Assembly (NCBI GenBank): GCA_030390025.1
Contig: CM059431.1
Span: 128,404,001-128,468,000, forward strand
Source of the DNA: Squalus acanthias
Taxonomy: Eukaryota
Direction of reading: 5' to 3'
DNA length: 64,000 nucleotides
The position numbers and the translations under genes are program-made. Under the pieces are notes generated by a model, which saw only the letters and a program-made list of their open reading frames with translations, was not told where the DNA came from and did not search any database. Below are positions 1,667 through 29,498 of this stretch, one piece after another. The stretch's first letter is position 1. Each line of letters begins with the position of its first letter.

Positions 1667-2791
1667 TTTCAAGACTGAGAGTGATAGATTTTTGAGCACT
1701 AAGGGAATCAAGAGATATGGGGATAGGACGGGAAAGTGGACTTGATATAAATGTTCAGCCATGATCTTACTAATGGCGAAGCAAGCTCGAAAGGTCATAT
1801 GGCCTACTGCTGCTCCTATTTTTTTATGTTCTTATGTTCTCAATAGTCTTAGTAATGTCCTTCTAATGTGATGATCAACACATTCTCGTTATTTTTATTT
1901 AATACGTAACTGGTTAACCGATTAAACCACCTTGTAAATTCTCTTCAGTGAGTCTGCACGACATTATCTGGTCTTTGTCCATTGTTACTTTCACGTTTTG
2001 TACCTTACTATCTCAACTTTTGTGATACCCTCTCTCTTATTGTCTTGTATTTAGTCAGTCTTCTGCCTATCTGGCTCGGTGCCAAGAACACACCATGTCT
2101 GTCCTTGCAGATTATTAGTATAGTTTGTTCACAGGTTCTACACTTCTCGTGAATATGACCTATTAGAACCTGCTTATATTACAGATTCTTGTTCGAATAA
2201 GTTATTGAGAGACGTTTGATAAAGTTACTAGAATTCTTAGGGTCTTCCCCACCTAGCCTACCTCTGGCTACATTGCTTTTCTCTGCATCTAACCCCTGCT
2301 GTACCTGACCTGGGATTGTTTGATGGGACAGTGTACAGGGAGCTTAAATCATTATTGCCAATGATGCCCCCTCCAATTATTGTCCGATGGTCCCACCTGT
2401 TGATACCCCTAATGATCTCTACACATTGCCTCTGATGCCCCTTCCTGTTACAGGGAATAGACTGGTTTCAGAACACAGAGGAGCTTGTAATATCCCTGCC
2501 TCAAGCCAACACCATTCCTTCAAAATGCCTCTCACTGCCAAAGCAAGAGGGATACACAATGCCTGATATACAAAGAGAGGAAGACTTTGGGGTGTATAAA
2601 GCAAGATGTGGGCATGGGGGCCATTGAATAGTGGGACCTCATATTATGAGGATAGGAGGGAGAATTCAAAAGGGGTCATTTTGGGAGTCCGTGATCTCTG
2701 TATGGAGTCTCAATACAAGGGAGCAGGGCCGGAAAGAGGACTGAATTCAACCTGCATTCATCCCCAGTGAGACTGCACAACCGGATCAGAA

Positions 2792-3655
2792 ATAACAACA
2801 GAAAATGCTGGAAACACTCAGCAGGTCAGGCAGCATCCATGGAGAGAGAAACAGAGTTAATGGGCCAGAAATTCGGCTGTTGTCGGGTGAGTACACGTTG
2901 TGTACTCACCCGTAAGGCCACCTGAAGTGCCGGTTTCCTGCATGCGCTGCGCATGCGCGGGAAAGCGGAACTTCCGTTCCCCTGAAGGGAGGAGTTCAGA
3001 AGTCAAACGCGTGCGTGGAAGAGGCTGCGCGCATGCAGCGAACTTCAGTTTTTTTTTCAGGTTTCTCCGGGAAGGTAAGTATGAAGAAGCTGCACTTTTA
3101 AAAAGGAGGCACAAGGCCTGTTTTTAACAAGGTAAGTGGTTCATTAATTACAATTTAAAAATTTTTTCAACAGGTTTATCTTTTTTAGATCCTTTAAAGA
3201 AAGGTAAGTTTATTTTTAGCACCGTTAAAAAGCATAATTAATTTTTTCAAAAATTTTAATTTTGTTTAAAATAGTTAATTTATTTAACTTATAGTTATTT
3301 AAAAAATGTGACTTAAAAAAAAAATTATTTGAAGTTTAAGTGTGGTTTTGGGGCCGATCTCTATTCATAGATTTGACAGGTCTTCCTGTCAAATCTATGA
3401 ATGAAAATGCCTTGCTAGGATTGGCTCTCCATGGCCCACGTGCTCCCAGGGGACGCTTCGAACTAACTGCGCCCCTGGGATACACAAGCACTGCGCGCCG
3501 GCAGCTGCAGGAGGCCCAGGACCCGAAGTCCTCGTGGGCCCAAAGCACAACAGCAGGCGCGGCAGGCAAGTACGTGCGTGATGCTTGCACCCGCAGGAAG
3601 CCGGAAAGCTGAATTTCTGGCCCAATATGTTTCAGGTCGATGACCCTCAGAAACA
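2792..3655 (-). mobile_element. Short Penelope-like terminal (pLTR/SINE-like) fragment, 2792-2861 + 3624-3655, split by a MITE
   Basis: acagaaaatgctggaaacactcagcaggtcaggcagcatc...gagaaacagagttaat|...|atgtttcaggtcgatgacc closely matches the end of the longer PLE copy at 11366 (the 4717 copy has a deletion here). Confidence 0.8.
2862..3623 (+). mobile_element. Non-autonomous Harbinger-type MITE, ~760-bp family, copy 1
   Basis: TIRs GGGCCAGAAATTC / GAATTTCTGGCCC. 3-bp TSD AAT at 2859-2861 and 3624-3626. Homologous copies at 10598 and 45400. Confidence 0.9.
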
Positions 3656-3659
3656 GATC

Positions 3660-3870
3660 ATGGCCTGGTCATGTGACTGTATAATACCATGAGTGGGAGG
3701 GGCTTGGGCTGCTTTGTGACATAGTTCTTGGTTGCTGTGTGATTGGCTCCAGGCTCCTGGCTCCTTTATGATGTTACCTGGAGACAGGGTCCCTGGTTAC
3801 ATATTATCAGTGGATTTACTGTGGGTGGAGCTGGAGTTGGCAACTGACACTGAGTGAGTGAGTTTATTCC
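3660..3870 (+). promoter_or_regulatory. Promoter-like motif cluster of array unit B (homologues at ~13170-13350 and ~27435-27612)
   Basis: GGTCATGTGAC (E-box/M-box-like), GGGAGGGGC (GC-box-like), ATTGG (reverse CCAAT) and TGATGT(C/T)A, followed by GTGAGT donors. Order is conserved in three copies. Function is inferred. Confidence 0.45.
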
Positions 3871-4309
3871 CTATAAATAGGGGAAAAGAAAGAAAAGAAC
3901 AATTTAATATTCAAGTAAGTAATACAACCAAATGTCATTAATTACAAATATATTCGAAGTAAATATAATCATTGTCCATTTTATTCCAGATTCTAGAATT
4001 AATAGTAATCAATTTAATACTAAAAGTTTCTTGGAGTGATCAGTATCTCAGGAAGGTGGAGAGAGAGAAGTCGAATTGTCACCACACTAACCAGGACTGG
4101 AGAAACATCGCTGGGTTCACAGAGCAGATCTGGTGGGACCAAGACCTCCAGTGTCAAAGACGGTATAAAACGGGAAGCTTCAACAATGACTGGAAAGATG
4201 AGGAAGTCTATTGAGAATCTCTTCGATTTTGCCGAGGCGAGAGTCCAACCAGATACTGGCTGCTGTTCAACAGCTGCCATAAGGCTCGGCCTTTTATGAA
4301 GCAAGTTGA

Positions 4310-4590
4310 ACAGAGCTTAACTCGTATGTAAACAGTGCCCATACCTCACCTGGGAGTGCTTGACACTTACATGTAGAGGGAATTATATTCTGTTTTCATC
4401 CCATGCTGTACCTGAACTGGTGTGCTACATTGGATTGTGTCAAGGGAGCTGTATGCTGCATTGAACTCATTCTGTATCTGTGTTGGCTGTGTTTATTGCA
4501 CCAATTTAGAGATAGCTTTACACTGCATCTAACCCGTGCTGTACCTGACCTGGGAGTGTTTGATTGGACAGTGTAAAGGGAGCTATCCCA
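4310..4590. repeat. Degenerate ~65-bp tandem repeat inside each array unit (also ~2283-2345, 14335-14600, 28075-28345)
   Basis: Repeated diverged copies of cccgtgctgtacctgacctgggagtgtttgatgggacagtgtagagggagcttt. Confidence 0.7.
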
Positions 4591-5382
4591 ATATTGCCCA
4601 CGATGTGCACTCCTATTATTGCTCCGGTCCCACCACCTGATAACCCTGATGGTCACTCCAATTATTGCCTTGTTACAGGGAATAGACTGGCTTCAGAACA
4701 CAGAAGAGTTTGTAATATAAAAGCAAAACACTGCAGATGCTGGAAATCTGAACGGCAGCATTTGTGCAGAGAGAAACTGAGTTAACGTTTCAGGTCGATG
4801 ACATTTTGTCAGAACTGGAAAAGATTAGAGACATAACAGATTTTAAGCAAGTACAGAGGCAGGGAAAGGGGGAATGGAAGGAAAGAACAAAAGGTAAGGT
4901 CTGTGACAGTGTGGAAGGCAGGAGAGATTAAATGACAGAAGGATTGATGGTGCAAGGCAAAATGAGATGGTAATGGGACAAGTAAAGAAACAAAAGATAG
5001 TTCTAGAGGAGTTGTAAATGGGTCTATCTGAATCATCAGCAACAGCTAACGTCCGAAAAAATGGGGACAGACGTTATGATCTGAAATTGTTGAACTCAGT
5101 GATGAGTCCAGAGCTGGAATTTTCTTTACCTGGGCGGTCGGGTGCAGGCGTTCGCTGTGGCAGGTCGTGACCCTGTTGTTGCTTTCATCCCACTGCAGAA
5201 ATTGGCTTTGCACTAATGGAGCCTATTAAGCCCGCCCTACGCATTACGCAGCCCTATTAATGGTGCAGATCTGATGACGTCATCCATGACGCGGTTTCAG
5301 CTGGGCTATTTAAAGGAGCCATGGCCACATTGCATTTGAAGGTTCATCTAGGAGTGTGCAGTCACTGCATTGGAGGCTTTGA

Positions 5383-7770
5383 TTGCTCCAAGCAGTTGGA
5401 GACAGGACTGCACAGTGGCAGACGGTTGCACCCAGGTTCTCAGATGACTCCCTCCATATGCTTGTGGAGGGAGTCAGAGCATGCAGGGAGCTCCTCTTCC
5501 CTTCAAATGGGCAGAATATACCTCCTCAGGAGACAAAAAGAGCCTGGCTCCAAATTGCAGAGGAGGTCAACAGTAGGGATGTGTTCAGGAGGACCTGGGT
5601 GCAGTGCTGGAAATGTTTCAATGATCTCATTCAATCAGGAAAGGTGAGTACAAAGCCACACTCAACTTCATCCTGCTGTGCCTCTCATCACATCCCCATC
5701 ACTCTGCCTTCCCAACCCTGCTCCTGCCCATCCTTACTCACACCAACATACCTTGCACATCGTAGGAAGTATAGGGAGGTCACTTATTACTTGGAGGGTG
5801 TGAGTCTGGGTGGGGTAGAGGAGCAAAGGGATCTCGGAGTACAAATACACAGTCACTGAAAGTAGCAACACACATTAACAAGGCCATTAAAAAAGCAAAC
5901 CAGGCAATAGGATTTATTTCTAGAGGGATAGAATTGAAAAGTAGTGAAGTTATGCTAAATTTGTATCGAACCTTGGTAAGACCATATTTGGAGTACTGCA
6001 TACAATTCTGGTCGCCATATTATAAAAAGGATATAGAGACACTGGAGAGGGTGCAGAGAAGATTTACAAGGATGATACCAGAAATGCGAGGGTATACCTA
6101 TCAGTAAAGGATGAATAGGCTGGGTCTCTTTTCGCTTGAAAAAAGAAGGCTGAGGGGTGACCTAAGAGAATGTTTCCACTTGTGGGGAAGAGTATAGCTA
6201 GAGGCCATCAATATAAGGTAGTCACCAAGAAATCAAATTGGGAATTCAATGTAGTTCCCCCCTCCCTCTTTCTCTATCTACATTATCACATCCCCAACTT
6301 ACTAGCCACCCCTCACACTCACCCTCATCCTAATGCAATCATACCAACTAAGAACACATAAGGAGGCCACTTGGCATTGTCACCCTATTCTATCATAGTT
6401 TCCCTCTAAGGATGTAACCCATCCATTCCTTACACTCATTCCATCACTCTCACTCAAACTTCTCTTCTTTAACTTCTTGCAGAAGAGAGCGCACAATAAG
6501 AGGGAGAGGGAGAGAACCGGAGGTGGACCTCCATCATTTGCCACACTCACAACAGCAGAGGAGGCTGCGTTGGAAGTCTCGGGAGTGGCCGAGCAGCTGG
6601 AGGTGGGAGACGGAGAGAGGGGGACATCTCAACAACCTGGTGACAGATTAACATATCATACAGTTACATGGAGTAAATCAGTCACTCATGTGGGGATTGA
6701 TATTATCAGCCACTGAATGGTCATCATGTGCAAAATGGTATCTGTACCCATTCTTCATATGACATATCTAACTCCTCTCTTTACTCTCCCACAGGTCCAT
6801 CAAGACCCCCCCGCCAACTGTCCAGGAGGAAAAGGAAGATGATTCCTCAGAGGCGCCTCCAGCTTCTGATGGCGCAGCATCACCAGACGTAAGCGCACCC
6901 AGCACCAGCGCAGATACGCACACCTCGGTGGGTCTCACGCGGGATAGAGTAGTGTTGTGTCACAAGTCACAAGTGAGCAAGAGCAGATGCTGGAGACAGG
7001 GACAGCAGTGGAGAGTCCTCACCAGAGGGCGCAGGACACTCCTAGCTCTGCTCACCTGCATGCAGACGCTGAGCCTCGGGGGCCATCCAGAAAGAGGGCG
7101 ATGCTGGAGGTGCAGCAAGAAGTGCAGGAGGCTTTGACAGGTTTTGCGAGCGTGATATCTGCATATGTTCAGAGAATGGAGGAGTCCATCTCCAACATGA
7201 GCACCACCGTGTCGCAGGTGATGGTGACTGTAGGCTCTTCCATGGATAGGATGGCCACCTGCATGGAGCAGCTAATGCGCCACTCACAGGAGTACATGGT
7301 CTCTATGGAGAATAGATGGCTATCTATGGGGAATAGATGGCTATCTATGGAGCATAGAAGGCAGAGGCTCATATACTTCTGCTCTAGGAGGGATGTCAGC
7401 GTGGACATGGGTCCTCATGGCCCCACTGCTGTGCAACAAGGTGTTCTCCAGCTCCTTGCTAGCAGGGAAGTGTAGGTGGCCCATGAGAGGGATGATGGTA
7501 AGAGGGGACATGGAAGTGTGGGCTCCTCTCAGAGCACTTACACTTTTACCCCATTGCCACCCCCTCAGTCAGAGCCCCAGATGCCTCCTCGGACAGTCGC
7601 AGGAGTATCCGACTTTGGCGGGGCCATCACAGGCTCCAAAACCCAGACAACGTCCACAAAGAGTGTCTAAGCAGTCACAGCAGGGAAGTGAGCTGGCTGT
7701 CTCTACCTCTGCTGAAGCCACAGGGGTAGCACCTCATAGAAGCATGCGTAAGAGAAAGATGACACACTAG
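5383..7770 (+). pseudogene. Harbinger Myb/SANT-like DNA-binding gene, 3 exons (~5383-5643, 6483-6639, 6795-~7770)
   Basis: APRFSDDSLHMLVEGV...W.QIAEEVN...RTWVQCWKCFNDL is a trihelix Myb_DNA-bind_5 motif. Donor AAG|GTGAGT, acceptor ttcttgcag, exon 2 KRAHNKRERERTGGGPP, acceptor ctcccacag. Exon 3 has frameshifts. Confidence 0.85.
5753..6250 (+). mobile_element. CR1 RT fragment inserted in intron 1 of the H1 Myb gene
   Basis: EQRDLGVQIH..., RPYLEYCIQFWSPYYKKDI..LERVQRRFTRMIP. Confidence 0.85.
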
Positions 7771-8089
7771 TAGATTCCCAAGGGTAGCCACTTGGTTGTT
7801 TTATTCAATGTTAATGTCAAGTTTCCCTTAATGTATTGTCAACCATAAAAATCTTTATTTTCACCACTTTCTGGTCTTGGACATATTTATGTGCACCTTT
7901 GGAAATGGCTTAGTGAGTTGCAGTGAATGATGAGACATAACGGTACCTCCAGCAATGGTGGTCAGTGTGAAAGGAATGGCTTGGTCATTGTAGGGTGTTG
8001 CTGTGGTGTGGTGCCAACCTGGCGCAGCATGTGGCAGTCATATGGGTGTACTGCGTAAAGTTAAGTAAATCTGGCCATGATAAGGCCAT

Positions 8090-9281
8090 CCTGGCCTCTC
8101 GTGCAGCAATGTGCTCAGGTGCAGGTGGGATCTGGCCCACAGGTTCCTCCAGCTCCTGCTCCTCCTCATCTTCCAGCTGATGCTCCTCCTCCTCCTCCTG
8201 CTCCTCCTCCTCTGAAGAGGCTGTGTGCTCAGTGCCTTGCTCCTCATGCAGCGCTAATCTTCGCTGCTGCGCTATGTTGTGCAGACCATGTCGATTCTGG
8301 AGACCCTGGCTGGTGCGTACTGAAGAGCTCCTCCAGATCTGTCAAGGCATCTGAAGGACATCTTGAGCATGCCTATTGTCTGCTCTATGACACATCTGGT
8401 GGACATGTGGCTTTCATTAAATCTCTCCTCGGCCTCAGTACTTGGCCTCCTCAAGGGTGTCATGAGCCACGTCTTCAGTGGATAGCCCTTGTCTCCAAGC
8501 AGCCAGCCGGAAAGTCTGTTTGGAGGAGCGAAGAGCTGAGGGAGGATGGACTGGCAAAGGACGAACGAGTCATGGCAGCTGCCAGAGAATTTGGCGCACA
8601 CATGCATGATGATCTTCCTGTGGTTGCAGACCAGCTGCACATTGAGGGAGTAGAAGCCCTTGCTGTTGGCAAAGGCTCCTGGGTTATGATGGGTTGCCCT
8701 GATGGCCACATGTGTGCAGTCGATGATGCCCTGCACCAGTGGGAAGCCAGCCAGAGTGGCAAAGCCGAGCGCCCGCTCAGTAACATTGGCTTCATCAGTG
8801 GCAAAGTTGATATAATTGGCTGACTTGTCAAACCGGGCATCGGTGACCTGTGTGATGCATTTGTGGGTGGCCGACTGCGAAATGCCAAAATTGCCTGCTG
8901 CAGATCCCTGGAAGGAGCCTGAGGCGAAGACGCTGGTGACTTTGACAGCCACTAGTAAGGTGTGTCCACCCATTCCTCTGGGCTGCAGGTCTTGCTCCAG
9001 CAATGTGCAAATGTCTGCGATGACCTGGCGCGATAGCCTGAGCCTCCTTTGGCACTGCTGCTCAGTCATGTTGAGGAAGCTCATCCTCTGCCTGTATACC
9101 CTGTGTTGCGGGTATCGCCTCTGGCGCGCTGCAGCCCTGCACTGATGCCCTCTGTCCTGTGCAGCATCGGGTTGGTGAGGAGAAGGTTAGTGGTGTTGTT
9201 GTTGGTGCTGGTGCTGCTGGTGTTGGGGCTCATCGTGGTCCAATTCTGCAGACCATATGAGACAGTATAAATGGCACGCAT
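8090..9281 (-). pseudogene. Harbinger DDE transposase (HARBI1-like, DDE_Tnp_4), frameshifted at both ends
   Basis: ORF 8272..9084(-) has [38 protein letters not shown] and [12 protein letters not shown] motifs. Confidence 0.92.
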
Positions 9282-10597
9282 GTTTATGGAATAGATGGCA
9301 GGTCAAGTAGAGATCAGAGGAGCAAGCTGTCAATGGTGTGATAGGTTGTACCAATGAGGTGAGACTGGATGGCGACTTTGCTGGAAGTACTTGCAACCTG
9401 TAGAAAGCTCAATGTGTGCTGGGAATGCAGTCAGCAACAGCTTCTGCCTGACGAAAATGATCAGCTGTGAGGTGCGAGCTTTTATAGTACATTTCATGCT
9501 GTCACCTAATCAGCTGGAGCAATGGCCAATCAACTCCCACCTCAGGCTGACAGACATGGTTCCGGAGCTGCGTGAATCCCGTGGGCAGCCAGGGAAATTT
9601 GAAAGTTAGGCTGAAAAAGGCACTTAAGGGTCTGACAAGTACCTGTTAATGATTTGAATTAGGTCACCCGCATCTGCCGGCCTGTTCGCTGATGCATCCA
9701 AGGGAAAGGCGTGTGGGGGCGTGATGATGGCTGGTTCCTGACCCGCTGCAAGATAGTTCAAATTTCCCACCCGACCTGCCTCCAATCGCGCCCGCACGGA
9801 CCACAGAAAATTCTGGCCCAGAGGCTGCAAAGTGCCTAATAGAAAGAGGAGGTGCTTACATTGAGCTTCATTGAAATAGTGTAGGAGGCCAAGAACAGAG
9901 AGGTCAGAGTGGGAGTGGTCCAGAGAATTAAAATGACAGTCGACCGTAAGCTCGGGGTCATGCTTGTGGACTGAACGGAGTTGGTCCACAAAGCGGTCAC
10001 CCAATCTGCATTTGTTCTCCCCAGTGTAGAAGAAACCGCATCGTGAGCAGCGAATACAGTATACAAAATTGAAAGAAGTACAAGTAAATCGCTGTATCAC
10101 CTGGAAGGAGTGTTTGGGGCCCTGGACGGTGGAAAGGGAGGAGGTTAAAGGACAGGTGTTGTATGTCCTGCGCTTGCACAGGAAAGTGCCGTGGGAAAGG
10201 GAGTGGATGTTGGGGGTGATAGAGGAGTAGACCAGGGTGTCGCGGAGGGAACCGCCCCTTCAGAATGCTGAAATGGGAGGGGAGGGGAAGATCTGTTTGG
10301 TGGTGGGATCACGCAGGAGGTGGCAGAAATGGCAGAGTATGATGCGTTGAATGTGGATGCTAGTGGGGTGGAAGGTGAGGACAAGCGGAACTCTATCGTG
10401 GTTTTGGGAGGAGAGAATGGGGTGAGAGCAGAAGTGCGAGAAATGGAATGGTCACAGTTGAGGACCCTGTAAACCACATTGGAGAGGAATCCTTGGTTCA
10501 GGAAGACATATTGGAAGCACTGGTATGGAAGGTGGCATCTTTGGAACAGACGTGACAGAGACGAAGAAATTGGGAGAATGGAATAGAGTCAAATAAT

Positions 10598-11362
10598 GGG
10601 CCAGAAATTCGGCTCCCTGGCTTCCCGCGGGTGCAAGGATCGCGCGCGAACCTACCTACCGCGCCTGCCGTTGACCTCTGGGCCCACGGGGACTTCGGCT
10701 CCTGGGCCTCCCCCAACCGCCAGCGCGCAGTGCTTGTGTATCCCAGGGGCGTAGTTAGTGCGATGCGTCCCCTGGGATCACGTGGGCCATGGAAAGCCAA
10801 TGGCAGCAGACCATCTTTCATTCATAGATTTGACAGGAAGACCTGTCAAATCTATGAATACAGATCGGCCCCAAAACATCCCTAAAACTACAAATATCTT
10901 TTTTTTTTAAATCACATTTTTAAAATAACTATAAATTACATTAATTAACTACTTTAAACAAAAATTTACATTTTTGAAAAAATTAATTACATTTTTTAAC
11001 GGGGCTAAAACTAAACTTACCTTTCTTTAAAGTAATTAAAAAAGATAAATCTGTGAAAAAAATGTTTAAATTTTAATAAAATCAACACTTACCTTGTTAA
11101 AAGAAGGCCTTGCGCATCCTTTTTAAAAGTGTATCTTCTCCGTGCTTACCTTCACGGAGGAACCTGTAAAAAAATCCGAAGTGCGAGGTGAACGCATTGG
11201 CCCTCTGGCGTGCGCGTTCGACCTCTGAACCCCTTTCCTCAGGGGAACGGAAGTGCCGGTTTCCTGTGCATGCGCAGTGCATGCAAGAAACCAGCACTTT
11301 CGTTCCGTCCATGGACGAGTACACAGTGCGTACTCACCCGACAACAGCCGAATTTCTGCCAA
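10598..11362 (-). mobile_element. Harbinger-type MITE, ~760-bp family, copy 2 (reverse orientation)
   Basis: GGGCCAGAAATTCGGC ... GCCGAATTTCTGCCAA with AAT flanks. Reverse complement is colinear with 2862-3623. Confidence 0.9.
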
Positions 11363-11365
11363 AAT

Positions 11366-12885
11366 ATAAAAGCAAAATACTGTGGGTGCAGAAATCTGAA
11401 TTAAAAACAGAAAATGCTGGAAATACTCAGCCAGTCAGGCAGCATCTGTGGAGAGAGAAACAGAATTAATGTTTCAAGTCGATGACCTTTCGCAGAACTA
11501 GAAACGGTTAGAGATGTAACAGGTTTTAACAAGTACAGAGGCAGGGAAAGGGGGAGGGGAGGGGAGGAAAGAACAAAAGGGAAGGTCTGTGATAGAGTGG
11601 AAGACAGGAGAGATTAAATGACAAAAGGGATGATGGTGCAAGGTGAGGTCTAGAGGAGGTGTAAATGGGAATATCAAAATCAGCAGCAGCAGCTGATGTC
11701 CAAAAAAATGGGGGCGGATGTTATGATCTGAAATTGTTGAACTCAATGTTGAGTCTGGACAGTTGTAAAGTGCCTAATAGAAAGATGAGGTGCTGTTTCT
11801 CGAACTTACGTTGACCATCATTGCAACAGTGAAGGAGGCCGAGGACAGAGAGGCCAGAGTGGGTGTGGTCCGGAGAATTAAAATGACAGTTGATTGAAAG
11901 CTCGGGGTCACGCTAGTGGACTGAACGGAAGTGTTCTGCAAAGTGATCACCCAATCTGCGTTGGGTCTTCCCAGTGTAGGGAGACCGCATCGTGAGGAGT
12001 GAATATAGTATACTAATTGAAAGAAGTACAAGTAAATCACTGTTTCACCTGGAAGGAATATTGGGGCCCTGGACAGTTGGAAGAGAGGAGGTAAAAGGGC
12101 AGGTGTTGTATCTCCTTGCACTTGCATGGGAAGGTGCTGTGGGAAGGGGAGTGAGTGTTGGGGGTGATAGAGGAGAGGACCAGGGTGTCACGGAGGGAAC
12201 TGTCTCTTCGGAATGCTGAAAGGGGAGGGGAGGGGAAAATGTGTTTGGTGTTGGGATCACGCTGGAGGTGGCGGAAATGGCGGATATGATCCGTTGAATG
12301 TGGAGGCTGGTGGGGTGGAACGTGACGACAAGGGTCACCCTATCGTGGTTCTGGGAGGGAGGGGATGGGGTGAGATCAGAAGTGCAGGAAATGGAATGGA
12401 TACAGTCGAGGGCCCTGTCAACCACGGTGGAGGGGAATCCTTGGTTCAGGAAAAAGGAAGACATATTGGAAGCATTGGTATGGAAGGTGGCATCTTGGGA
12501 ACAGATCCGACGGAGACAGAGAAACTGGGAGAATGGAATAGAGTCCTTACAGGAAGTGAGGTTCGAGGATGCGTAGTCAAGGTAGCTGTGGGAGTCAGTG
12601 GCCTTATAATGGTTATTGGTCAATAGACTATCCCCAGAAATGGAGACAGAGAAGTTGGGGTAGGGAAGGGAAGAGTCGGAGATGAACCATGTGAAGGCGA
12701 GGGAAGGGTGGAAATTGGAACCAAAGTTGATGAAATTTTCCAGTTCGGGGCGAGAGCAGGAAACTGCACCATTAACAGTTATCAATGTTCCAGAAAAAGT
12801 GGTGAGGGAGGGCAGCTGAATAGGACTGGAACAAAGAAAGTTCTGGATATCCCACGAAAAGGCAGGCAGAGCTAGGATCCATACG
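11366..12885 (-). mobile_element. Penelope-like retroelement, longer 5'-truncated copy (RT C-terminus, GIY-YIG, terminal repeat), in partial tandem with the 4717-10594 copy
   Basis: ORF 12045..12785(-) NFHPSLAFTW...YKATDSHSYLDY.S.....CKDSIPFSQFL.LRRICS is PLE RT thumb/linker. Its 3' end matches the copy at 4717. Confidence 0.9.
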
Positions 12886-17242: not shown

Positions 17243-20200
17243 TAGAAACATAGAAACATAGAAGATAGGAGCAGGAGTAGGCCATTCGGCCCCTCGAGCC
17301 TGCTCCGCCATTTAATGAGATCATGGCTGATCATCCAAATTCAGTACCCTGTCCCTGCTTTCTCCCCATATCCCTTGATCCCTTTAGCCTTAAGAAAGAT
17401 ATCTAACTCCTTCTTGAATATATTTAATGAATTGGACTCAACTGCCTTCTGTGGTACAGAATTCCACAGTTTCACCACTCTCTGGGTGAAGAAATTCCTC
17501 CTCATCTCTGTCCTAAATGGCTTACCCCTTATCCTTAGACTGTGACCCCTGGTTCTGGACTCCCCCGCCATCGGGAACATCCTTCCTGCATCTAGTCTGT
17601 CTAGTCCTGTTAGAATTTTATAAGTTTCAATGAGATCCCCTCTCATTCTTCTAAACTCCAGCGAATATAAGCCCAATCGACCCAATCTCTCCTCATACAT
17701 CATTCCTGCCATCCAGGTATCAGTCTGGTGAATCTTCGCTGCACTCCCTCCATGGCAAGAACATCCTTCCTCAGATAAGGCGACCAAAACAGCACACAAT
17801 ACTCAAGGTGTGGTCTCACCAAGGCCCTGTAAAACTGCAGCAAGACATCCTTGCTCCTTTACTCGAATCCTCTCGCTATGAAGACCAAAATACCATTTGC
17901 CTTCTTAACCGCCTGCTGCACCTGCATGCTTACCTTCAGCGACTGGTGCACAAGGGCACCCAGGTCTCGTTGCACTTCCCCTTCTCCCAATCTATTGCCA
18001 TTCAGATAATAATCTGCCTTCCTGTTTTTGCCACCAAAGTGGATAACCTCGCATTTATCCACATTATACTGCATCTGCCATGCATCTGCCCAATCACCCA
18101 ACCTGTCCAAATCATACTGGAGTTTCTCTGCATCCTCCTCACAGCACACACGCCCACCCAGCTTTGTGTCATCTGCAAACTTGGAGATATTACATCTAGT
18201 TCCCTTGTCTAGATCATTAATATATATTGTGAATAGCTAGGGTCCTAGCACCGATCCCTGCGGTACCCCACTAGTCACTGCCTGCCACTCGGAAAAAGAC
18301 CCATTTATTCCAACTCTTTGCTTCCTGTCTGCCAACCAGTTCTCTATCCTGTAAGGGGTTCTGTGTCGTGCTTGTATCGCAGACGGTGCTGGTGCGGGGT
18401 TAGGCCTTCGTTGCCCAATACTATTGCTTGCTCTGGTCTCCAGCCAGCCTTGTTGCAATAAGCACCTGTGAGTGTTTCGACCCACTCGCCCTTACGGTTC
18501 TAACACTGGACTTAGGTGCGAGAGCAGTAATGCAGAGAAAAACTCAAATAGACCTGGTTGAATAGTACGAAATGGAAATCTTTATTGCATTGCGTCTAAA
18601 ATCATGAAGTACATGTCATAGGCACAAATTAACGATAGTACAAGTATACATACATTCATAAAGCTTGGTCTATGGTAATGAAGAACGCACGGCACATCGT
18701 AAAAAGGGGAACACATTATACTTTATCCTTATTGAAAACCACCCTCCCTTATCAATACCTACACTACGTCTAGATTTGTAGGATCGGGAAACATGCTCAC
18801 CACTCGTGATACTTCGGAGAATTTTAAAGTAAGGCACTCGGCTCGTTTCACTGCAGCACCTGACTGTCACGTGTTTGGAGGGGTCTCTGTACCCCACTTG
18901 TTTATCTTCGCTGCTGCGGCAGGCAGGCTGGGCTCCCCGTTGTCATGAAGAACTCGACAGTGCTCGGGCCCGGCTGTAGAACTCAAAGAAAAGTCTTCCA
19001 GGACCGACACCAGTTACCGATAGAATTCAAAGAAGAGTCTTCTTGTATCGACACCGGTTGTCGATAGAATTCGAAGAAGAGTCTTTCACTGGTTCGTGCA
19101 GCAACCTATAGATTTCAAAAATGGTCTATATATTTTCGGGCGCGGTCGGGGTTTACTGACAGCGGTGGCCAGGGGACTCTTCTTCTTCTCCTCTCATCTT
19201 GTCTTGTCTTTTCGGGCCTTCGGGTCCAGAACACCTTTTACCGACACTTGGGATGGTGCACCCGGTTACGCGCCCTCTGTCGAGGCGGCTCGTCCCGATT
19301 GAGCTCCACCCAACATTCGAATAACCGTCCAGTGCGGCTAAAAGTCCAGAGTCAACAGAGTCCAGAGAAACACAGAAGGCTGCTCGTCCAGCAGAGTTCA
19401 GCCCCCGTCAAGAGTCCACAGAGATAAGAGAAATAAAAGCAAGCGAGTGATGGACATTTGTTCACTATAGTTATAGTGCTGTGTCCCCTTATCTCCCGCC
19501 CAAATCTTAATGTTTGTCCTTTGTGAAATATTGGCACTTAAAACTCCCAGCATGGGGCGATTCTTGTCTGTAATGGGTTTCGGTAGCACCTGAAACTGGC
19601 CAACTACCCGTTAATGTTTTCCCCATTGTTGAACCGGCTCGGAGCCTCCCTGGCTGGGTTTTGGGGGCCCCCGAATACTTGTTTAATCACCCGAGAATGG
19701 CTCTCTCATTGTAGAGCCGTGGGGGTATTTGCGTATTGATGTGTCTGGATGGGCCTTCGATTGCCCAGTACAATGGTCCTTACTTGTGCATGGAAAACGA
19801 TTCCAGCACTCATATCTTATGCTATTGTTTCGAATGCAAACAGGTTGCATCCTGTCTTTATCAATGTCTGCTGAGAATTATCCAATCTTATACTGGAATG
19901 TTTATTCGAACGCCTTCTTGTCTGCCCACTGAAAATTCTGGAAGCTTCTGTCACGATGCGTGGCGGCCATTTTACAGGCTTCTGTGTCTTGTTTAATCAT
20001 GACAGCATTTCGTTTAAATAAACTGATCAAACGAATCTGCTTCTAACTCGTTATTTCGAATCGCGATAATTGCGAAACTTTACAATCCCAGTCAGTACCT
20101 TACCCCCAATCCCATGTGCTTTAACTTTGCATGCTAATCTCTTATGCGGGACCTTATCGAAAGCCTTCTGAAAGTCCAAATACACCACATCCACTGGTTC

Positions 20201-20671
20201 TCCCTTATCTATTCTACCAGTTACATCCTCAAAAAATTCCAGTAGATTAGTCAAGCACGATTTACCTTTTGTAAATCCATGTTGACTTTATCCGATCCTG
20301 TCACTGTTTTCCAAGTGCTCTGTTATTACATCTTTTATAATGGACTCTAGCATTTTCCCCACTACCGATGTCAGGCTTACTGGTCTATAATTCCCCGTTT
20401 TCTCTCTACCACCTTTTTTAAATAGTGGGGTTACATTAGCTACCCTCCAATCCATGGGAACTGTTCCAGAGTCTATAGAATTTTGGAAGATGACCAGCAA
20501 TGCATCTACTTTTTCTAGGGCCACTTCCTTAAGTACCCTAGGATGTAGATTATCAGGCCCTGGGGATTTATCGGCCTTCAATCCCGTCAATTTCCCTAAC
20601 ACCATTTCCCTACAAATACTGATTTCATTCAGTTCCTCCCTCTCATTACACCATATGTTCCCCGACATCTC
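17243..20671 (-). mobile_element. CR1 LINE (17243-18349 + 20085-20671), split by a solo LTR
   Basis: Tail reads agaaacatagaaacatag. RT motifs are continuous across the LTR. Confidence 0.9.
18350..20084 (-). mobile_element. Solo LTR, 1735 bp (ERV or Gypsy class undetermined; orientation inferred)
   Basis: Termini TGTAAG...CTTTACA (TG..CA with short inverted repeat). 4-bp TSD ATCC at 18346-18349 and 20085-20088. TATA-like motif at 19127-19132 and minus-strand AATAAA at 18581-18586. No long ORF. Confidence 0.85.
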
Positions 20672-22216
20672 CTGGAGGTATCCCAGACTGTTAATAGAAG
20701 TAAGAGAGGAAATAGCAGAGGCTCTGACCATCATTTTCAAGTCCTCTCTGGCTACAGGTGTGGTGCAAGAGGACTGGAGGACTGCTAACGTGGTACCGTT
20801 GTTTAAAAAGGGAGAATGGGATACACCGAGTAATTAGAGCCTAACCTCGGTGGTGGGAAAATTAATGGAAAAAATTCTGAGGGACAGGATAAATCTTCAT
20901 TTAGAAAGACACGGATTAATCAGAGACAGTCAGTATGGATTTCTTAAGGGAAGGTCGTGTCTGACTAACTTGATTGAATTTTTTGAGGAGGTAACAAGGA
21001 GGGTCGATGAGGGTAATGCGTTTGATGTAATTTATGTGGATTATAGCAAGGCTTTTGATAAGGTCCCGCATGACAGACTGGTCACAAAACTAAAAGCCCA
21101 TGGGATCCAAGGCAAAGTGGCAAGTTGGATCCAAAATTGGATCAGCGGCAGGAAACAAAGTGTAATGGTCTAAGGGTGTTTCTGTGACTGGAAGGCTGTT
21201 TCCAGTGGGGTTCCGCAGGGCTCAGTACTGAGTCCTTTGCTTTTTGTGGTATATATCAATGATTTGGACTTGAATGTAGGAAGTATGATTAAGAAGTTTG
21301 CAGATGATACAAAAATTGGTCATGTGTTTGATAATGAAGAAGAAAGCTGTAGACTGTAGAAAGATATCAATAAATTGGTCAGGTGGGCAGAACAGTGGTA
21401 ACTGGAATTTAATCTGGAGAAGTGTGAGGTAATGCATTTGGGGAGGGCTAACAAGGCAAGGGAATACATTATAAATGAGAGGACACTGAGAAGTGCAGAA
21501 GATCAGAGGGACCTTGGAGTGCATGTCCACAGATCCCTGAAGGTAGCAGGACAGGTAGATAAGGTGGTTAAGGAGGCATGTGGGATACTTGCCTTTATTA
21601 ACCGAGGCATAGAATATAAGAGCAGGGAGGTTATGCTTGAACTGTATAAAACACTAGTTAGGCTGCAGCTAGAATACTGCATGCAGTTGTGGTCACCACA
21701 TTACAGGAAGGGTTTGATTGCACTAGAGGGGGTGCAGAGGAGATTTACGAGGATGTTGCCTGGGCTGGGAAATTTTAGCTATGAGGAAAGATTGAATAGG
21801 CTGTGGTTGTTTTCTTTGGAACAGTGGAGGCTGAGGGGGGACCTAATTGAGGTGTATAAAATTATGAGGGCCTAGATAGAGTGGATAGGAAGGACCTATT
21901 TCCCTTAGCAGAAGGGTCAATAACAAGGAGGTACAGATTTAAAGTAATTGGTCAGAAGTTTAGAGGGGATTTGAGGAGAAATATTTTCACCCAGAGGGTG
22001 GTGAGGGTCTGGAACTCACTGCCTGAAAGGGTGGTAGAGGCAGAGACCCTCATCACATTTAAGAAGTACTTGGATATGCACTTGAAGTGCCATAACCTAC
22101 AAGGCTACGGACCAAGTGCTGGAAAGTGGGATTAGGCTGGATAGCTCTTTGTCGGCCGGCGCGGACAAAATGGGCCGAATGGCCTCCTTTTGTGCTGTAA
22201 ATTTTTATGATTCTAT

Positions 22217-23109
22217 GGGGGAAAAATTCAGTCGCGCCCCGTTTGGGGCGCAAATATCGTCCGGGCGCAAAAATTAGCGCCTGGCGCTAATTATCGCCAC
22301 TGACTGGAAACTTCACTTTTAACGCCCCAGGAGGTGAGTGGAGCGCTAAATCAGGCGCTGCACACCTGTCTTAAGGCGCAAAGGCCAAGGAGTGAGGCGC
22401 TAACTCAGAGCGCTGGCGAAGCTCATGTAATGTCAGTCAGCAATGGAACACACACACAATGGCACGGGCCAGTTCTTAAAGGGGATGGTTAATCTTGCTT
22501 TCCATCCACATCCTACTCATTGCAGCCTTGAATCTCGGCCTGGAGAGACTTGCACATCAAATGTGCTGGAAAGAACAAGGGAGAGTACCAGGCAAAGAGC
22601 TCAGAGTGCAGCCCCCACAGTCTCTGCTAAATCAATACAAGGAATGGAAAATCAAAATGAACCTGCAAAGTGCTGCTCAGTACCCAAAACTCCTTCACAC
22701 AATGTTGAATCTCTCCAGAAGTCTCTCCCTCTCTCTCTCAGAATGCGTAGTTCAAAAATGGCACCAACAATAAAAGGCAGGAAGCGGTCACCTTTAAATA
22801 GCGCTCCCCCTTTCCCTTCATGACTGCAGAACGCTCCCCTCAACCTGTCGTTGCTAGCGTCAGGCGGTAAGGCAGGGGGCGCCACTCAATATCCGCTCCG
22901 GGGCGATACCGGGGCGTTGCACACTCGAGTGACGTCACAATCTGCCGGCGCAGGAGATCGTGGCGGTAGTGTTTAGCGCTGCCGCAAAATGTCTAGTTAA
23001 TTTCGCGAGCGGTGCAAACTTCGCCGCGGCCGGGCGCTAGATGCTTTGCGCCCCATTAGCGTCCTCTTAAGGCGCTAACGGGAGGCGCAACCAACTGAAA
23101 TTTCCCCCC
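22217..23109. mobile_element. 893-bp non-autonomous deletion derivative related to Harbinger H2
   Basis: TIRs GGGGGAAAAATTCAG / CTGAAATTTCCCCCC and TSD TAT. The left ~340 bp and right ~400 bp are homologous to the ends of 23121-27225. Confidence 0.92.
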
Positions 23110-23449
23110 TATGATTCTATGGGGGAGAAATTCAGTATCGCCCCATTTGGGGCGCAATTATCGGCCGGGCGCAAAGATTAGCGCCTGGCGCTAATTATCG
23201 CCTCCGACTGCAAACTTGACTTTTATCGCCCCTGGAGGTGATTGGAGCGCTAAAGGCCGAGGAGCGAGGCGCTAACTCAGAGCGCGGGCGCAGCACAGGT
23301 GCTGTCAGTTAGCGATGGAACACAGACACACTGGTGCCAGACAGTTCTTAAAGGGGTCGGTTGATCTTGCACTCCAGCCACACCCTGCTCATTGGAGCCT
23401 TGAATCTCGGCCTGGAGAGACCTGTGCCTAAATCTTCCAGCCAAGGACT

Positions 23450-25256
23450 ATGGAGAGGGTGAGAGAACGAGCTCAGTGCTTCAGCGAGTGGGCCTTGGAT
23501 GCTCTGGTTGGTGCGGTGGAGCGCAGAAGATCTATACTCTTCCCTGAGAGTGGCAGGAGGCCTTTGCTGCGCGAGTACAGAAGAGTGTGGAGGGAGGTGG
23601 CTCAGAGCGTCTCCTCCAGGAGCATGTTGCCCAGGACCCATATACAATGTCGAAAAAAGTTCAACGACCTCACTCGGGTCGTCAGGGTGAATGGCTTTTT
23701 ATCAATACCTCTCCATCCCTCCATCTCAACCTCACTCTATGACCAGAGGGTCTTAAAACCCCAATGCACAACACTCATCCAACACCTATGGCCCTCTCAT
23801 GAAACACACACGCACATTCCACACTTTGCATACAGTAAGGGCTATTCACCTATGGGAGGCACATCAGGCAAGACCATGGCTGCATACAGTAAGGACTATT
23901 CACCTATGGGAGGCACATCAGGCAAGACCATGGCTGTATATTTACTCAGACGCCGTCCTTTTTCTTGCAGGCCAAGCTATCTTATAATAGGAGACAGCAG
24001 CAAATGACGGGTGGAGGGCGGCCTCAGCTGCAACCCCTCCGCGATCTTGAGGCGTGCGTCCACAGGATTGTGGCAAGCCGGGTGATCGGTCCCGTCACTA
24101 CTGGAGATGCCGACCCCGTTGTGGACAGCAATGGTAAGGCCAAAACATTTTTGTGCTCTGTCCTTCCACTTGTCCCTCACAACACCAGCCTTTGACACTT
24201 TCAATCCAACTTACTAAATCGCTGCACTCATTCCTCCCTTACTGCCACCCTGTCCTCACGCTAAAGCCACTCTTGTACCTCCCTGCTTTCAGATGGTGAT
24301 TCACCAGCTGAGGAGACGGGCCCTCAAGCTGCCAGTGGGAGTGAAGCTGCAGGCGAGGAGGAAGATGAAGGCGGAGCATCAGCGCCACCCTCTCCTGAGG
24401 AAGCCCATGCCCACACTGGGAACACGCCTCCCCTGGAGAGGAGCAGGGGGGAAGGGTCTGATGAGGGTGAAGCTTCAGGCCCAGTGGGCAGCAGCAACGC
24501 GATAGGGGTAGGGAAGCTCGGGGGCCTTCTCCCCGGAGGGAGAGTATGCCAGCGAGTCCTACTGCACTGGACGCAGAGGAGGAGCGGCTCATCGCTGAAA
24601 TGAACACCCAGGCGGTGGACATGCACACCGAGCTCATGGGTGCAGTGGGAAGGGTGCCCAAATGCATTGAATCACTGGCAAGGAGTGTGGAGCACTTTGC
24701 TGTAGCACAGGCAAATGTTTAGTGCTGCAATTCAGTCACTGGCTGCTGCGACCCCATCTCTGACTGCTCTCATGCAGACTCAGATTGAGGCCACGCGAGC
24801 ACTGACTGCTGCCATCCTCACTGGTTCGGACACATTTCCCCGGGGCTCTCACCGCGCCGCAGCAGGCCAGCAATCTGTGCTCCAGCAGATTGCTCCGGAT
24901 GCTGAAGTGCTGCCCCGTGGGTGTGCCAGTGTGTCGGTCGAGCAGGGAGTTGCTGTCCTCTCTCAAATGACAGCATTCCTGCTGCCACCACTGTCACTTC
25001 TCCACTGCAATTGCCACCGCCTGTAGGACAGACTGCTGCCGCCCATGCAAAGTTGGTGCAGTCTGCAGCCGGGCCCTCCAGGCCCAGAGCTGGTCGAGGC
25101 CGTCCTTCAAGGGCATCAGCAGTCTCAGGTTCTGACAATCAGCAGCCTTCCACCAGCCTTGCTGCAGCCACTGGGGTCCAATTCCGGAGGAGCAGTAGGG
25201 TGGGAAGGGGGGAAGTGCGCAAAGCAAGGAGATCACCCTCGAAGGGCAAAAAGTAG
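23450..25256 (+). pseudogene. Harbinger Myb/SANT-like gene, exons 23450-23686, 23971-24133, 24293-~25256
   Basis: MERVRERAQCFSEWALDALV...WREVAQSV...RTHIQCRKKFNDL. Canonical GT/AG sites. Exon 2 AKLSYNRRQQQMTGGG. Exon 3 is acidic and has frameshifts. Confidence 0.88.
23827..23934. repeat. 54-bp tandem duplication in intron 1 of the H2 Myb gene
   Basis: tgcatacagtaagg(g/a)ctattcacctatgggaggcacatcaggcaagaccatggc x2. Confidence 0.9.
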
Positions 25257-25567
25257 GAGGTGTGACAAAATGTTGGTCATTTTTTTATTAAAGGCTGAGG
25301 TTCGTGGTCAAACTTTTGTTTGTTGTTTTGGACATTATCTCCAGGTTGTGAGAGCCAGTTATGTTAATGAGTGTTTTTTTGTGTTTCTTTCTATTAGTTT
25401 GTCATGAGGAAATGACACACACAGAGTTTGTAAAATAAATAATTTTTTGTATTCAAAATGTACATGTTTGGTCTTTGGAATCATTGCGGCCTTGGCCGGC
25501 TTAGGGGTTGCGGGTTGGTTTTATTCATGTTGTTCTCAATGGCAGAAGCCATTTCCTCAGCAGGGGC

Positions 25568-26802
25568 CTAGAAGCGGTTTGCTATCAGCCGTTGACGGAT
25601 GGCCCTTCCAGTTTCTACATTGTGGGCCTCCCTCCCGCCTTGGTGCTGCTGATGATCATCCTCCTCCTCTTCCTCCTCCTCCTCTGGTGGTGCTCCAAGG
25701 CCTGGTGGCATTGGCTGGGTCCTGAGGATTGCCAGGTTATGCAGCATGCAGCACACAACTACAAAGTGGGAAACTCGCTCAGGCGAGTACTGCAGGGCTC
25801 CTCCAGAATGGTCCAGACAGCGGAACCGTTGCTTGAGCACGCCGATTGTGTGCTCAACGATGTTCCTGGTAGCTTGATGGCTCTCATTGTACCACAGCTC
25901 AGCAGGGGTGTTGGGCGTATGGAGCGGTGTCATCAGCCAGGTGCTCAGTGGATATCCCTTGTCCCCGAGAAGCCAACCAACTGGCTGATGCGGTGCCTGG
26001 AAAAGTTCTGCCACAGTAGTGTGGCGCAGGATGAATGCATCGTGGCAGCTGCAGGATAGTGGGCATTGACAGCGAGTATCAGCTGTCTGTGGTCACAGAC
26101 CAACTGAACGTTTAAGAATTGGAACCCCTTTCTGTTGCGGAAATCCTCGGCATTCTCATGCGGAGCACGCAAAGCCACATGCGTGCAGTCAATGGCGCCC
26201 TGCACCATGGGGAAGCCCGCTATCCTAGCAAAGCCCATTGCGTGTTCTTGCTGCTTGTCTGGGGTCATGGGGAAAGAGATGTACTCTTGTCTCCTTTTAA
26301 AGAGGGCATTTGTGACCTGATGGATGCAGCAATGCACCGCGAATTGGGAGATATTGGCGATGTCCCCATTAGCTGATTGAAATGAGCCAATGGCATAAAA
26401 GTTCAGAGCCACTGTGATCTTCACTGCCACCGACAGAGACGTCCTGGACCTCAGTTGAGGCTGCAGATCTGGCTGCAGCAGGTGGCAGAGCTCAGTGACT
26501 ACCTCCTTGCTGAAGCGCAGCCTTTGTAAACACTGCTCCTCAGACATATTAATATATGTGAATTGTTGGTGATATATCCTGGGAGGGTAAGGTCTCCTGT
26601 ACAGAGGCCTGTTGGCCCTCCTCCGTCTGGCCATGATTGCCACTCTCTCTCTGCGTCTCTGTGTCCTTCGATTTTGGTGGCGCAGGATGACGCCCCCAAT
26701 CAGTGTAGCCCCCAAAGTCTCTTGGCAATCAAAGTTATGAAGGTCAAAAACCAAAGTACCTGCCAGGTTATGATCAGTAACCAAAACTACCTCACACAGC
26801 AT
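25568..26802 (-). pseudogene. Harbinger DDE transposase with one evident frameshift near 26050
   Basis: ALNFYAIGSFQ, GAIDCTH, NVQLVCD, then [10 protein letters not shown] and [18 protein letters not shown]. Confidence 0.92.
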
Positions 26803-26817
26803 TGACTCAATGCAGAA

Positions 26818-26818
26818 G

Positions 26819-26855
<37 letters not shown>
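26818..26855. repeat. (CT)n microsatellite in the H2 transposase 5' region
   Basis: Run of tc dinucleotides, longer than the homologous spot in the 893-bp derivative. Confidence 0.9.
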
Positions 26856-26858
<3 letters not shown>

Positions 26859-28494
26859 AACGAGTTGTACAAAAATGTCTACCACAGAGAAAGACAGGAA
26901 GAGGCCACCTTTAAATAGCGTCCCCCCGGCCCCACAGTGACTGGGGAGCGTTCCAGTCTTCCGGTCGTTGGTTGCGCCAGGCTGAAAGGATGGGGGTGCC
27001 ACTCGATTTCCGCTCCAGGGCGCCACAAGGGCCTTGCACCCTCGTATGACGTCAAGATCTGCGTGCGCAGGAGATCGCGGCGGTAAAGTTTAGCGCCGGC
27101 GCAAAATGTCTAGTTAATTTCACAAGCGGCCAAACATTGCTGCGCCCGGGCACTAGTTGCTTTGCGCCCCATTAGCGCCCTCTTAAGGCACTAACGGGAG
27201 GCGCAACCAACTGAATTTTTCCCCCTATGACTTCGGTGCATAAAGCAAGAGGTAGGCACATGGGTCATTGAATAGTGATACTTCACATTGGAGTTTCAGA
27301 GGGAGATTTCATAAGGGGTCATTTTGTGGGTCTGTGATCCCTGCCTGGAGTCTCAGTACAAGGGAGCAAGGTTGGAGATGGACTAATTATAGATCCTGCA
27401 TTCATGCCCAGTGAGACTGCACAACAGGATCAGAGCCTGGTCATGTGACCATGTAATACATTGAGTGGGAGGGGCTTGGGCTGCTCTGTGACATAGTTCC
27501 TGGTTGCGATGTGATTGGCTCCTGGCTCCTTTGTGATGTTACCTGGAGACGGGATTACACCCCTGGTTACACACGGTCAATGGGAGTTATTGTGGGAGGT
27601 GTTGGAGTGAGTTTAGTCCATGTAAATAGGGGAAAGGAAAGAACAATATAATATTCAAGTAAGTAATTCAACCAAATGTTATTAATTGCAAATGTATTTA
27701 AATTAAATATAATGATAGTCACTGAAATAGTCCCATTGTATTACTGTTACAAGATTCTGGAATTAATAATAAACAATTTTATGTTAAAAGTTTCTTGGAG
27801 TGAGCAGTATCTGAGGAAGGTGGAGTGAGAGATGTTGAATCATCACCACACTAGCTGGGACTGGATAACGGTCGCTGGGTTCACAGAGCAGATCTGGTGG
27901 GACCAAGTCAAAGAGGGGATGAAACGGGAAGCTTCAACAATGACTGGAAAGGTGAGGAAATCTACTGAGAATCTCTTTGGTTCAGGATTTTGCAGAGGTG
28001 AGAGTTCAACCAGACACTGGGTGCTGTTCAACAGCTGCCATAGGGTTCAGCCTTTGATACTGCAAGTTGAACAGAGCTTAACTCGTATGTAAACCATGCC
28101 CGTACCTTACCTGGGAGTGCTTGACACTTACATGTAGAGGGATTTTTATTCTGTTTTCATACCATGTTGCACCTGAGCTGGTGTGCTACACTGGATTGTG
28201 TCAAGGGAGCTGTACGCTGCATTGAACCCATTCTGTATCTGTGTTGGCTGTGTTTGCTGCACCAATTTAGAGAGAGCTTTACACTGTATCTAACCCGTGC
28301 TGTCCCTGACCTGGGAGTGTTTGATGGGACAGTGTATGGGGAGCTATCCCATTATTGCCCACGATGTGCACTCCCATTATTGCTCCGGTCCCACCAGTCC
28401 CCTGATATCCCTGACAGTCACTCCACTTATTGCTTTTGATGCCCCTTCTTGTTACAGGGAATAGACTGGCTTCAGAACACAAAAGAGGTTGTAA

Positions 28495-29030
28495 TATAAA
28501 AGCAAAATACTGCGAATGCAGAAATCTGAGATAAAAACAGAAAATTTTGGAAATACGCAGCAGGTTAGGCAACATCTGTGGAGAGAAAAACAGAGTTAAC
28601 GTGTCAGGTCAATAACTTTTTGTCAGAACTGGAAAAGGTTAGAGATGTGATAGGTTTTAACAAGTGCAGAGGTTAGGAAAGGGGGAGGGGAGGAAAGACA
28701 AAAGGGAACGTTTGTGATAGGGTGGAAGGCAGGAGAGATTAAATGACAAAAGCGATGATGGTGCAAGACAAAATATGATGGTAATGGAACAATGAAAGAA
28801 AGAAAAGATGGGTCGAAAGGAGTTGTAAATGGGAATATCAAAATCATCACCAGCAGCTGCCATCTGAATAAATGGGGGCAAACGTTATGAATTAAAGTGA
28901 CAAGCAACCGGAAGCTCAGGGTCACGCTTGTGGACTGAATGGAGGTGTTCTGCAAAGCCGTCACCCAATCTGCGTTGTGTCTCCCCAATGTAGAGGAGAC
29001 TGCATTGTGAGCAGCAAATACCGTATAGAG
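28495..29030 (-). mobile_element. Penelope-like 3' fragment with internal deletion
   Basis: Homologous to 4717 and 11366. Inserted at the same position of the array unit as the 4717 copy. Confidence 0.85.
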
Positions 29031-29498
29031 TATACAGAGCTGGAGTGACAGCTGACACTCTGAGTGAGCTTATTCCCTATAAAGAAGGGAAAGGAAAGAA
29101 TAGAATACAATATTAAAGTAAGTAATACAAGAAAATATTGATAATTGCAAATATATTCCACTTAAATAAAGGGCCTGAATTTGCTGGAACAGGGCATCTC
29201 ATGTTATTTATCAGCAAATTTAAGCCTATGGTATTATTAGACTGTTTACATTGGATGTGCAGACTAGTTCTGTATTAAGTAGAGTCAGACAGTGAAGGAG
29301 ACAAATACTGAAAATCTGCTGTGTAGCTCAGGCTTTCTGACTGATGTGAGGCTTTCAGTAGCTCAAATAATACTGCATATGAGTTCCCAGTAACTCCAAC
29401 TCCCAAAGCATAGGGGACTTGCGACCTGATTTGGAACAGAAGAGAGAGTGAATTGATTTGACAGAGCGGTTAGTCTGTTCCTTGATTTAAAAAATCAT

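Follow-up and report, generated by a model that had tools for sequence, protein, structure and literature searches.

Introduction

The start of a gene can be duplicated apart from the rest of it. Tandem and segmental duplications leave stranded 5' gene fragments, consisting of a promoter and first exons without the gene body, and these decay neutrally. Other arrays of gene starts are working systems: the UGT1 and clustered protocadherin loci consist of tandem same-strand units, each with promoter-like sequence and a splice donor (PMC3325998, PMC1885805), and the zebrafish miR-430 locus is a working promoter array with over 300 promoters (bioRxiv 10.1101/2021.08.09.455629). Here we analyse a stretch of 64,000 nucleotides from the shark Squalus acanthias (assembly GCA_030390025.1, contig CM059431.1, positions 128,404,001 to 128,468,000 of the forward strand; hereafter the window, with positions counted from its first letter), which holds a tandem array of a module resembling the start of a gene. 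In layout alone it is like the UGT1 and protocadherin clusters, and with the miR-430 locus it shares a tandem TATA-type promoter unit in a fish genome.

We favour, with some reservation, the reading that this module forms the 5' part of the members of a large gene family of sharks, and that at this locus it was duplicated by unequal crossing-over between minisatellite tracts and then decayed. The locus itself is a real but probably inert duplication. Literature searches, with subscription papers and supplements outside them, found no description of the module or of the minisatellite, and one text search for the minisatellite core returned no paper; the module is absent from the available passages of papers on shark tandem repeats (PMC10620051) and on NLR expansions (PMC8455134), and no shark passage was found in the available part of PMC10547256.

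Results

A mosaic array with minisatellite boundaries

Self-BLAST and alignment confirmed a head-to-tail array of three full copies of a ~1.35-1.4-kb unit (B, C and D; 1349, 1368 and 1361 nt as cut) and one fragment (E). Gapless identity is 84.5-86.6% among the full copies and 77-82% between them and the fragment. A profile of the B/C/D alignment, searched against the window, found nine pieces at E <= 3e-21, all within 2272-29175, and no other piece elsewhere in the window below E 0.47, so the array is not due to chance. On the two strands of the window together, the motif GGTCATGTGAC has just three sites, at 3667, 13173 and 27439; ATGACTGGAAAG lies at 4186, 14201 and 27940, TTTCTTGTAG at 13540, and TTTCTTGGAG at 4027 and 27791. 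An earlier note, which had recognised the array from the letters of this DNA, gave every one of its named motif coordinates correctly, as a search of the window showed; its unit of 1.4-1.6 kb was somewhat too long and its ~20 kb of insertions somewhat too little, given that unit sequence accounts for 4,433 of the 26,888 bases of the array and insertions for ~22.5 kb.

The units begin and end in a minisatellite. Each full copy (3/3) closes with four degenerate monomers of 66-67 bp, spaced 61-67 nt apart on the forward strand: those at 4307, 4374, 4440 and 4507 form the boundary of units 1 and 2 (4307..4573), those at 14329, 14390, 14456 and 14521 the boundary of units 2 and 3 (14329..14587), and those at 28068, 28135, 28201 and 28268 the boundary of unit 3 and a partial unit 4 (28068..28334). 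A single monomer on the same strand makes up the left edge of the array (2267..2333, with 82% ungapped identity to the monomer at 28268), and none was found upstream of 2267, where offsets reach 28-39% identity against a background maximum of 48%. The natural register is given by the monomers starting at 2267, 4507, 14521 and 28268: the array opens with one monomer, repeats three times a core followed by four monomers, and closes with a partial core. In this register three full copies stand, as had been proposed, together with one partial copy instead of two, the supposed left partial copy being the start of the first unit: along with the head of B it forms the upstream spacer of unit 1 (2334..2790, forward strand by alignment). 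The partial unit 4 (28335..29170, forward strand, from alignment and motif search) contains spacer, a Penelope-like piece and fragment E; by alignment, short pieces of the unit also lie among the insertions of 14667..27227, at 16677-16780 and 16898-16974.

The copies are mosaics of one another. At informative sites in the head, C groups with D (34 vs 20 and 16), and in the tail B groups with D (26 vs 6 and 6) and the two also share an insertion junction, which is the pattern that repeated unequal exchange or conversion would leave.

A promoter-like cluster and an internal exon

A motif cluster with predicted promoter activity is present in 3/3 full copies. On the forward strand of copy B it occupies 3663..3801 and comprises an E-box at 3667, a reverse CCAAT at 3742, a site like the cAMP response element (CRE-like) at 3769 and, overlapping the latter, an X-box-type palindrome at 3773; the same motifs stand at 13173, 13248, 13261 and 13265 in the head of C (12887..13539, forward strand) and at 27439, 27514, 27534 and 27538 in the head of D (27228..27790, forward strand). 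The palindrome is of the RFX X-box type. The cluster is the best-kept part of the unit among B, C and D (90.6% vs 81-89% elsewhere). Three elements were absent from the earlier note, namely the palindrome, a TATA-like box at 3872, 13367, 27621 and 29078 (exactly TATAAATA in B only) and a GTAAGT that is kept in 4/4 copies (3915, 13408, 27659 and 29118), 36-43 nt after the TATA-like box. Because the TATA-like box precedes GTAAGT, the order suggests a first exon shorter than had been proposed, with GTAAGT as its probable donor and a start placed by TATA spacing; in B, the box, the putative very short first exon and the donor would span 3872..3920 of the forward strand, and in C and D the predicted intron, AT-rich in C, completes the head. 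The GTGAGT that had been taken for the donor is indeed present at 13349, but since it lies upstream of the TATA-like box, it is judged from the spacing to be more likely promoter sequence. As for a polyadenylation signal downstream of the TATA-like box, AATAAA is found in D only and ATTAAA in C and D at differing places, with neither in B, so that the copies have no hexamer in common. A promoter of the major histocompatibility complex (S-X-Y type) or of immunoglobulin and T-cell receptor V genes was considered and rejected, as no leader or V exon follows. Separately, an unrepeated stretch with CCAAT and a GC-rich motif at 30960-31130, 1.8 kb past the array, could be another promoter.

The internal exon is 171 nt long in B (4027..4197) and C and 161 nt in D (27791..27951, with a 10-nt deletion near 27907), always on the forward strand. 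In C (13540..14212) it is split into 13540-13606 and 14109-14212 by a fragment of a long interspersed nuclear element (LINE) of ~500 bp at 13607-14108. The donor GT is intact in C and D, and in B it reads AAG/AT (the slash marking the splice junction), the mutation that had been noted before. When a profile of one open frame of the exon was searched against 1.84 billion representatives, the sole match was a gene model of the horn shark, Heterodontus francisci (XP_067865009.1-XP_067865013.1, E 1.1e-9; four cluster members on one contig), with 27/46 residues identical to copy B. The homology starts at the codons K-F-L-G over AAAAG/TTTCTT and stops at N-W-K-G over AAAG/GT, so that the second exon block of the earlier note matches the model exon at both ends, with its acceptor moved 10 nt upstream. 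This reading of the splice sites follows the limits of homology to the model's protein; it points to acceptors at 4026, 13539 and 27790, ten bases before those first proposed, which would also explain the GAG found in B and D at the earlier site.

Whether this exon encodes protein is another matter. The Heterodontus model switches frame within the exon relative to the window copies, its first part following one of their frames and the rest another, and the variable columns of B, C and D fall evenly on the codon positions (11/10/9 of 53/54/54); constraint is therefore seen in none of the frames, and the exon probably goes untranslated, or is translated over a few codons at its end only. It may have a coding role in the wider family. 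Two frames are open in B, one of which holds the ATG and is open across all 57 codons, and C and D have stops or a frameshift. A light search of the ATG-holding frame found no match in Pfam, viral contigs or an exact look-up. The exon frames matched no Pfam family, and a protein word-index search with the B exon returned no longer proteins, an exact look-up 0/4 and the Atlas nothing usable. Two further candidates were rejected: homology of the flanking Heterodontus exons to the unit, since 130-702 of 1704 background windows score equally for the next exon, and the matches of a metagenome pattern scan, 5/5 of which were chance matches of 16-20 nt in GC-rich contigs.

A high-copy family beyond the locus

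The module is a high-copy family rather than a local feature. Contigs from 4 of 12 sequencing runs were aligned at 80% likeness, to copy D only: X1 is from the same species, X6 is from a second organism with its run type not on record, and X10 and X12 belong to one study with a guessed RNA-type label. Copy D is covered in 30/30 bins in both X1 and X6. Distinct contigs with another letter than D (X1/X6) number 54/53 at 27430, 52/46 at 27486 and 35/38 at 27944, and 35-54 variant contigs per site exceed by far what three or four loci could yield. Contigs recognisable as D or C have a depth of 16-23, and the summed depth outside the minisatellite ranges from 268 to 65,329; the ratio of summed to single-locus depth in X1 has a median of ~365 and peaks of ~1,700-3,300, which by rough inference suggests hundreds to thousands of module copies, contig depth not being a copy number. 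The coverage profiles of X1 and X6 are alike (Spearman 0.84), and D's own changes explain them weakly (-0.39). Structural variants are amplified as well, with a 46-nt skip in X1 and a 155-nt skip in X6, and in X6 two contigs, with a summed depth of 1049, have a junction of tail to promoter that leads from 28492 back to 27380. Very large amounts of the 66-bp minisatellite are present in both DNA runs and both RNA-type runs; it accounts for most aligned records, and its tandem joints of 59-67 nt appear in 4/4 runs.

Exon sequence of the family is covered by RNA-type contigs, which differ from D at several letters (one X12 contig at 8 of 89) and hence come from other family members. Relative to X1, the 4 exon bins exceed 22 other bins in summed depth by factors of 11 in X10 and 19 in X12, with 3 minisatellite bins and 1 boundary bin excluded, a comparison that we treat as a hint and not as evidence, contig depth being no basis for ranking the parts of a gene. 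The search of sequencing runs listed no RNA run as carrying the sequence, a result with no bearing on expression. One X12 contig crosses the acceptor unspliced (depth 4), and no GT..AG joint was seen among the 15 joints listed of 130.

At the locus itself, the copies carry lesions throughout: the donor is lost in B, the exon of C holds the LINE fragment, D has deletions of 21 and 10 nt (the former, of ~21 nt, near 27607), and E survives as a remnant. In X6, three contigs with the depth of a single locus differ from D at 16/264 (6.1%), 22/333 (6.6%) and 25/407 (6.1%) positions, alike across promoter, intron and exon, where B and C differ by 35-50 letters. These contigs are probably from the orthologue of D, which would have drifted evenly since the species split. 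One of them crosses the site of the 21-nt deletion in D with 8 gap letters and has no matching gap there; if the contigs are orthologous, both the array and this lesion would predate the split. The local copies look old and dead, and we infer that they are silent.

Insertions and surroundings

The window is vertebrate DNA rich in pieces of LINE reverse transcriptase and of Harbinger-type (Myb + DDE_Tnp_4) and Penelope-like elements. In unit 1, a short Penelope-end-like piece of unassigned strand, delimited by self-BLAST and junctions, lies at 2791..3655 and carries an element resembling a miniature inverted-repeat transposable element (MITE; ~2861-3627). The reverse-strand insertion at 4717..12886 is presumably Penelope-like, judging from a GIY-YIG-like frame at 9624-10259; it contains nested Harbinger-like (~5110-9820) and MITE-like elements, and its left junction is the same as that at 28498, where a truncated Penelope-like piece (28498-29035) interrupts the partial unit 4. 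Nested LINE, solo-LTR-like (LTR, long terminal repeat) and Harbinger-like insertions, of unassigned strand, fill 14667..27227. The solo-LTR-like element (18350-20083) has TG...CA ends with ATCC on both sides and sits inside a LINE piece, and the two Harbinger-like elements, at 5110-9820 and 22206-27227, each have Myb/SANT and DDE_Tnp_4 remnants on opposite strands. The LINE pieces at 14666-15377 and 62406-63117 are 96% identical, which indicates a young insertion in the tail of copy C and hence a region that still takes insertions; a 94-bp GC-rich tandem repeat (3 copies, 62058-62342) lies at a LINE 5' end.

A gene body was sought in the same window. Six-frame Pfam scans of 1-27,300 and 51,001-64,000 found mobile-element families only; in 29,170-51,100, one of 140 open frames of at least 50 residues in the mostly unrepeated parts had a Pfam match, a reverse transcriptase, and 27,300-29,170 was covered for the exon frames only. 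No gene body or constant exons were found in the 35 kb downstream of the array, up to the end of the window, and the window scans returned no NLR, zinc-finger or receptor family domain. Rfam gave no match in the window and none at E <= 1 in D, ARAGORN gave 0 tRNAs, and an 80-nt fold scan found no hairpin common to B and D. Two reverse-strand loci are recorded for completeness, a 119-residue open frame in unrepeated sequence at 38212-38571 and decayed frames at 48100-48830, both with no Pfam match; the latter presumably resemble a hAT/ZMYM-type transposase.

Discussion

The suggestion that only the 5' end of some gene was amplified here, its body being left behind, or that the array is the debris of a multigene cluster, fits these results in that the exon matches the Heterodontus model and no body was found downstream. 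The unit would consist of a promoter, probably a very short first exon, an intron of ~110-130 nt and the 171-nt internal exon, and would derive from a presumably protein-coding family. One such module would have lain between tracts of the abundant 66-bp minisatellite at this locus, and unequal crossing-over between the tracts would have multiplied it into head-to-tail copies that lack the gene body. Later exchanges would have made these copies mosaic, and they would then have decayed and filled with mobile elements.

Several points weigh against this account. Protein searches did not identify the parent gene, and the Heterodontus relative is one automatically made model, labelled 'uncharacterized', that has no Pfam family, a poor predicted structure (predicted local distance difference test score 0.29) and a protein search that returned the model itself only, with no longer relatives. 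Its upstream part resembles a LINE end (9/16 residues, E 0.3), and its exon may be an exonised repeat rather than part of a family member's normal transcript. Both donors and the acceptor are still present in copies C and D, and the well-kept promoter cluster could mean that some copies worked after duplication, while the 6% divergence between species stands without a neutral control. Contigs carry no location, so the other copies could form one big cluster or be scattered repeats, and the gene body could lie farther off than 35 kb or consist of small exons without a Pfam match.

Among other explanations, the unit could be a non-autonomous mobile element or LTR-like repeat, in which case the array would be several of these elements in tandem and the Heterodontus exon an exonised repeat; we consider this unlikely. 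Dozens of variants per site in two species, the amplified structural variants, the lack of coding constraint in the exon and a Heterodontus model that seems to join the module to a LINE-like piece would all suit it, as would the E-box, CCAAT and TATA-like motifs, which are common in LTR promoters. The earlier note had named likeness to a dispersed element or LTR as evidence against its own view, and the module does belong to a high-copy family, but one with no LTR or transposon hallmarks: its ends are minisatellite monomers, and no TG...CA, terminal inverted repeat or target-site duplication was seen locally. There is, moreover, no reverse transcriptase, integrase or transposase inside the unit, no polyadenylation hexamer common to the copies and no relative in viral contigs of the one frame searched, and an AT-rich stretch that resembles an intron, with its donor and acceptor both preserved, is more in keeping with a gene. 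The module could also be a macrosatellite that carries a promoter, occurs as tandem arrays at many sites and gives rise to a spliced non-coding RNA, with no protein-coding parent; we hold this to be rather improbable. The X6 junction of tail to promoter shows that the order of units recurs outside the window, the exon frame is not conserved with Heterodontus, and promoter-dense tandem loci do exist in fish, as at miR-430. However, the local copies are only ~86% alike and not homogenised, neither an Rfam match nor a hairpin common to B and D was found, and the X6 junction may simply reflect a deletion in what is normally the upstream order of the family.

Least probable is that the locus works as a set of alternative promoters, with first exons that splice to shared downstream exons, as in the protocadherin and UGT1 clusters, which the earlier note had also offered and which we regard as very unlikely. 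Its same-strand copies, each with its own and best-kept motif cluster, and the intact donors of C and D are what such an array would have. On the other hand, there is no long coding variable exon, every copy is damaged (B lacks its donor, C has a LINE in the exon, D is frameshifted and E is a fragment), D drifts evenly by ~6% from its probable orthologue, and no constant exons were found in the 35 kb downstream. A more speculative idea, to which we give a small chance, is that the module is a shark promoter and splice cassette, present hundreds to thousands of times, which recombination between the 66-bp minisatellite tracts on its two sides causes to spread. If true, a cassette with no transposase or transposon ends would seed tandem promoter arrays and supply unrelated transcripts with an exon, something at which the Heterodontus model hints, and would amount to a satellite-driven route for moving gene starts.

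If our preferred account of a decayed 5' module holds, the locus, as debris, matters little, and the family behind it is the lead worth following: a module resembling a gene start, for which we found no name, is common to at least two sampled species, with its exon also in the horn shark. The Heterodontus model is its closest relative, having the same internal exon with homology that ends at both predicted splice sites, but the frame changes within the exon and the flanking parts do not match the unit. Compared with the UGT1 and protocadherin clusters, this locus has no large coding variable exon, every copy is damaged, and the module belongs to a high-copy family. Compared with the miR-430 locus, it has three and a half old, insertion-ridden copies and no miRNA match. 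Stranded 5' fragments are a further point of comparison, with the difference that the breakpoints here coincide with a specific 66-bp minisatellite. These breakpoints show clearly, for one locus, how the ends of a tandem duplication can be marked by an abundant shark minisatellite, and they may bear on how multigene clusters grow in sharks.

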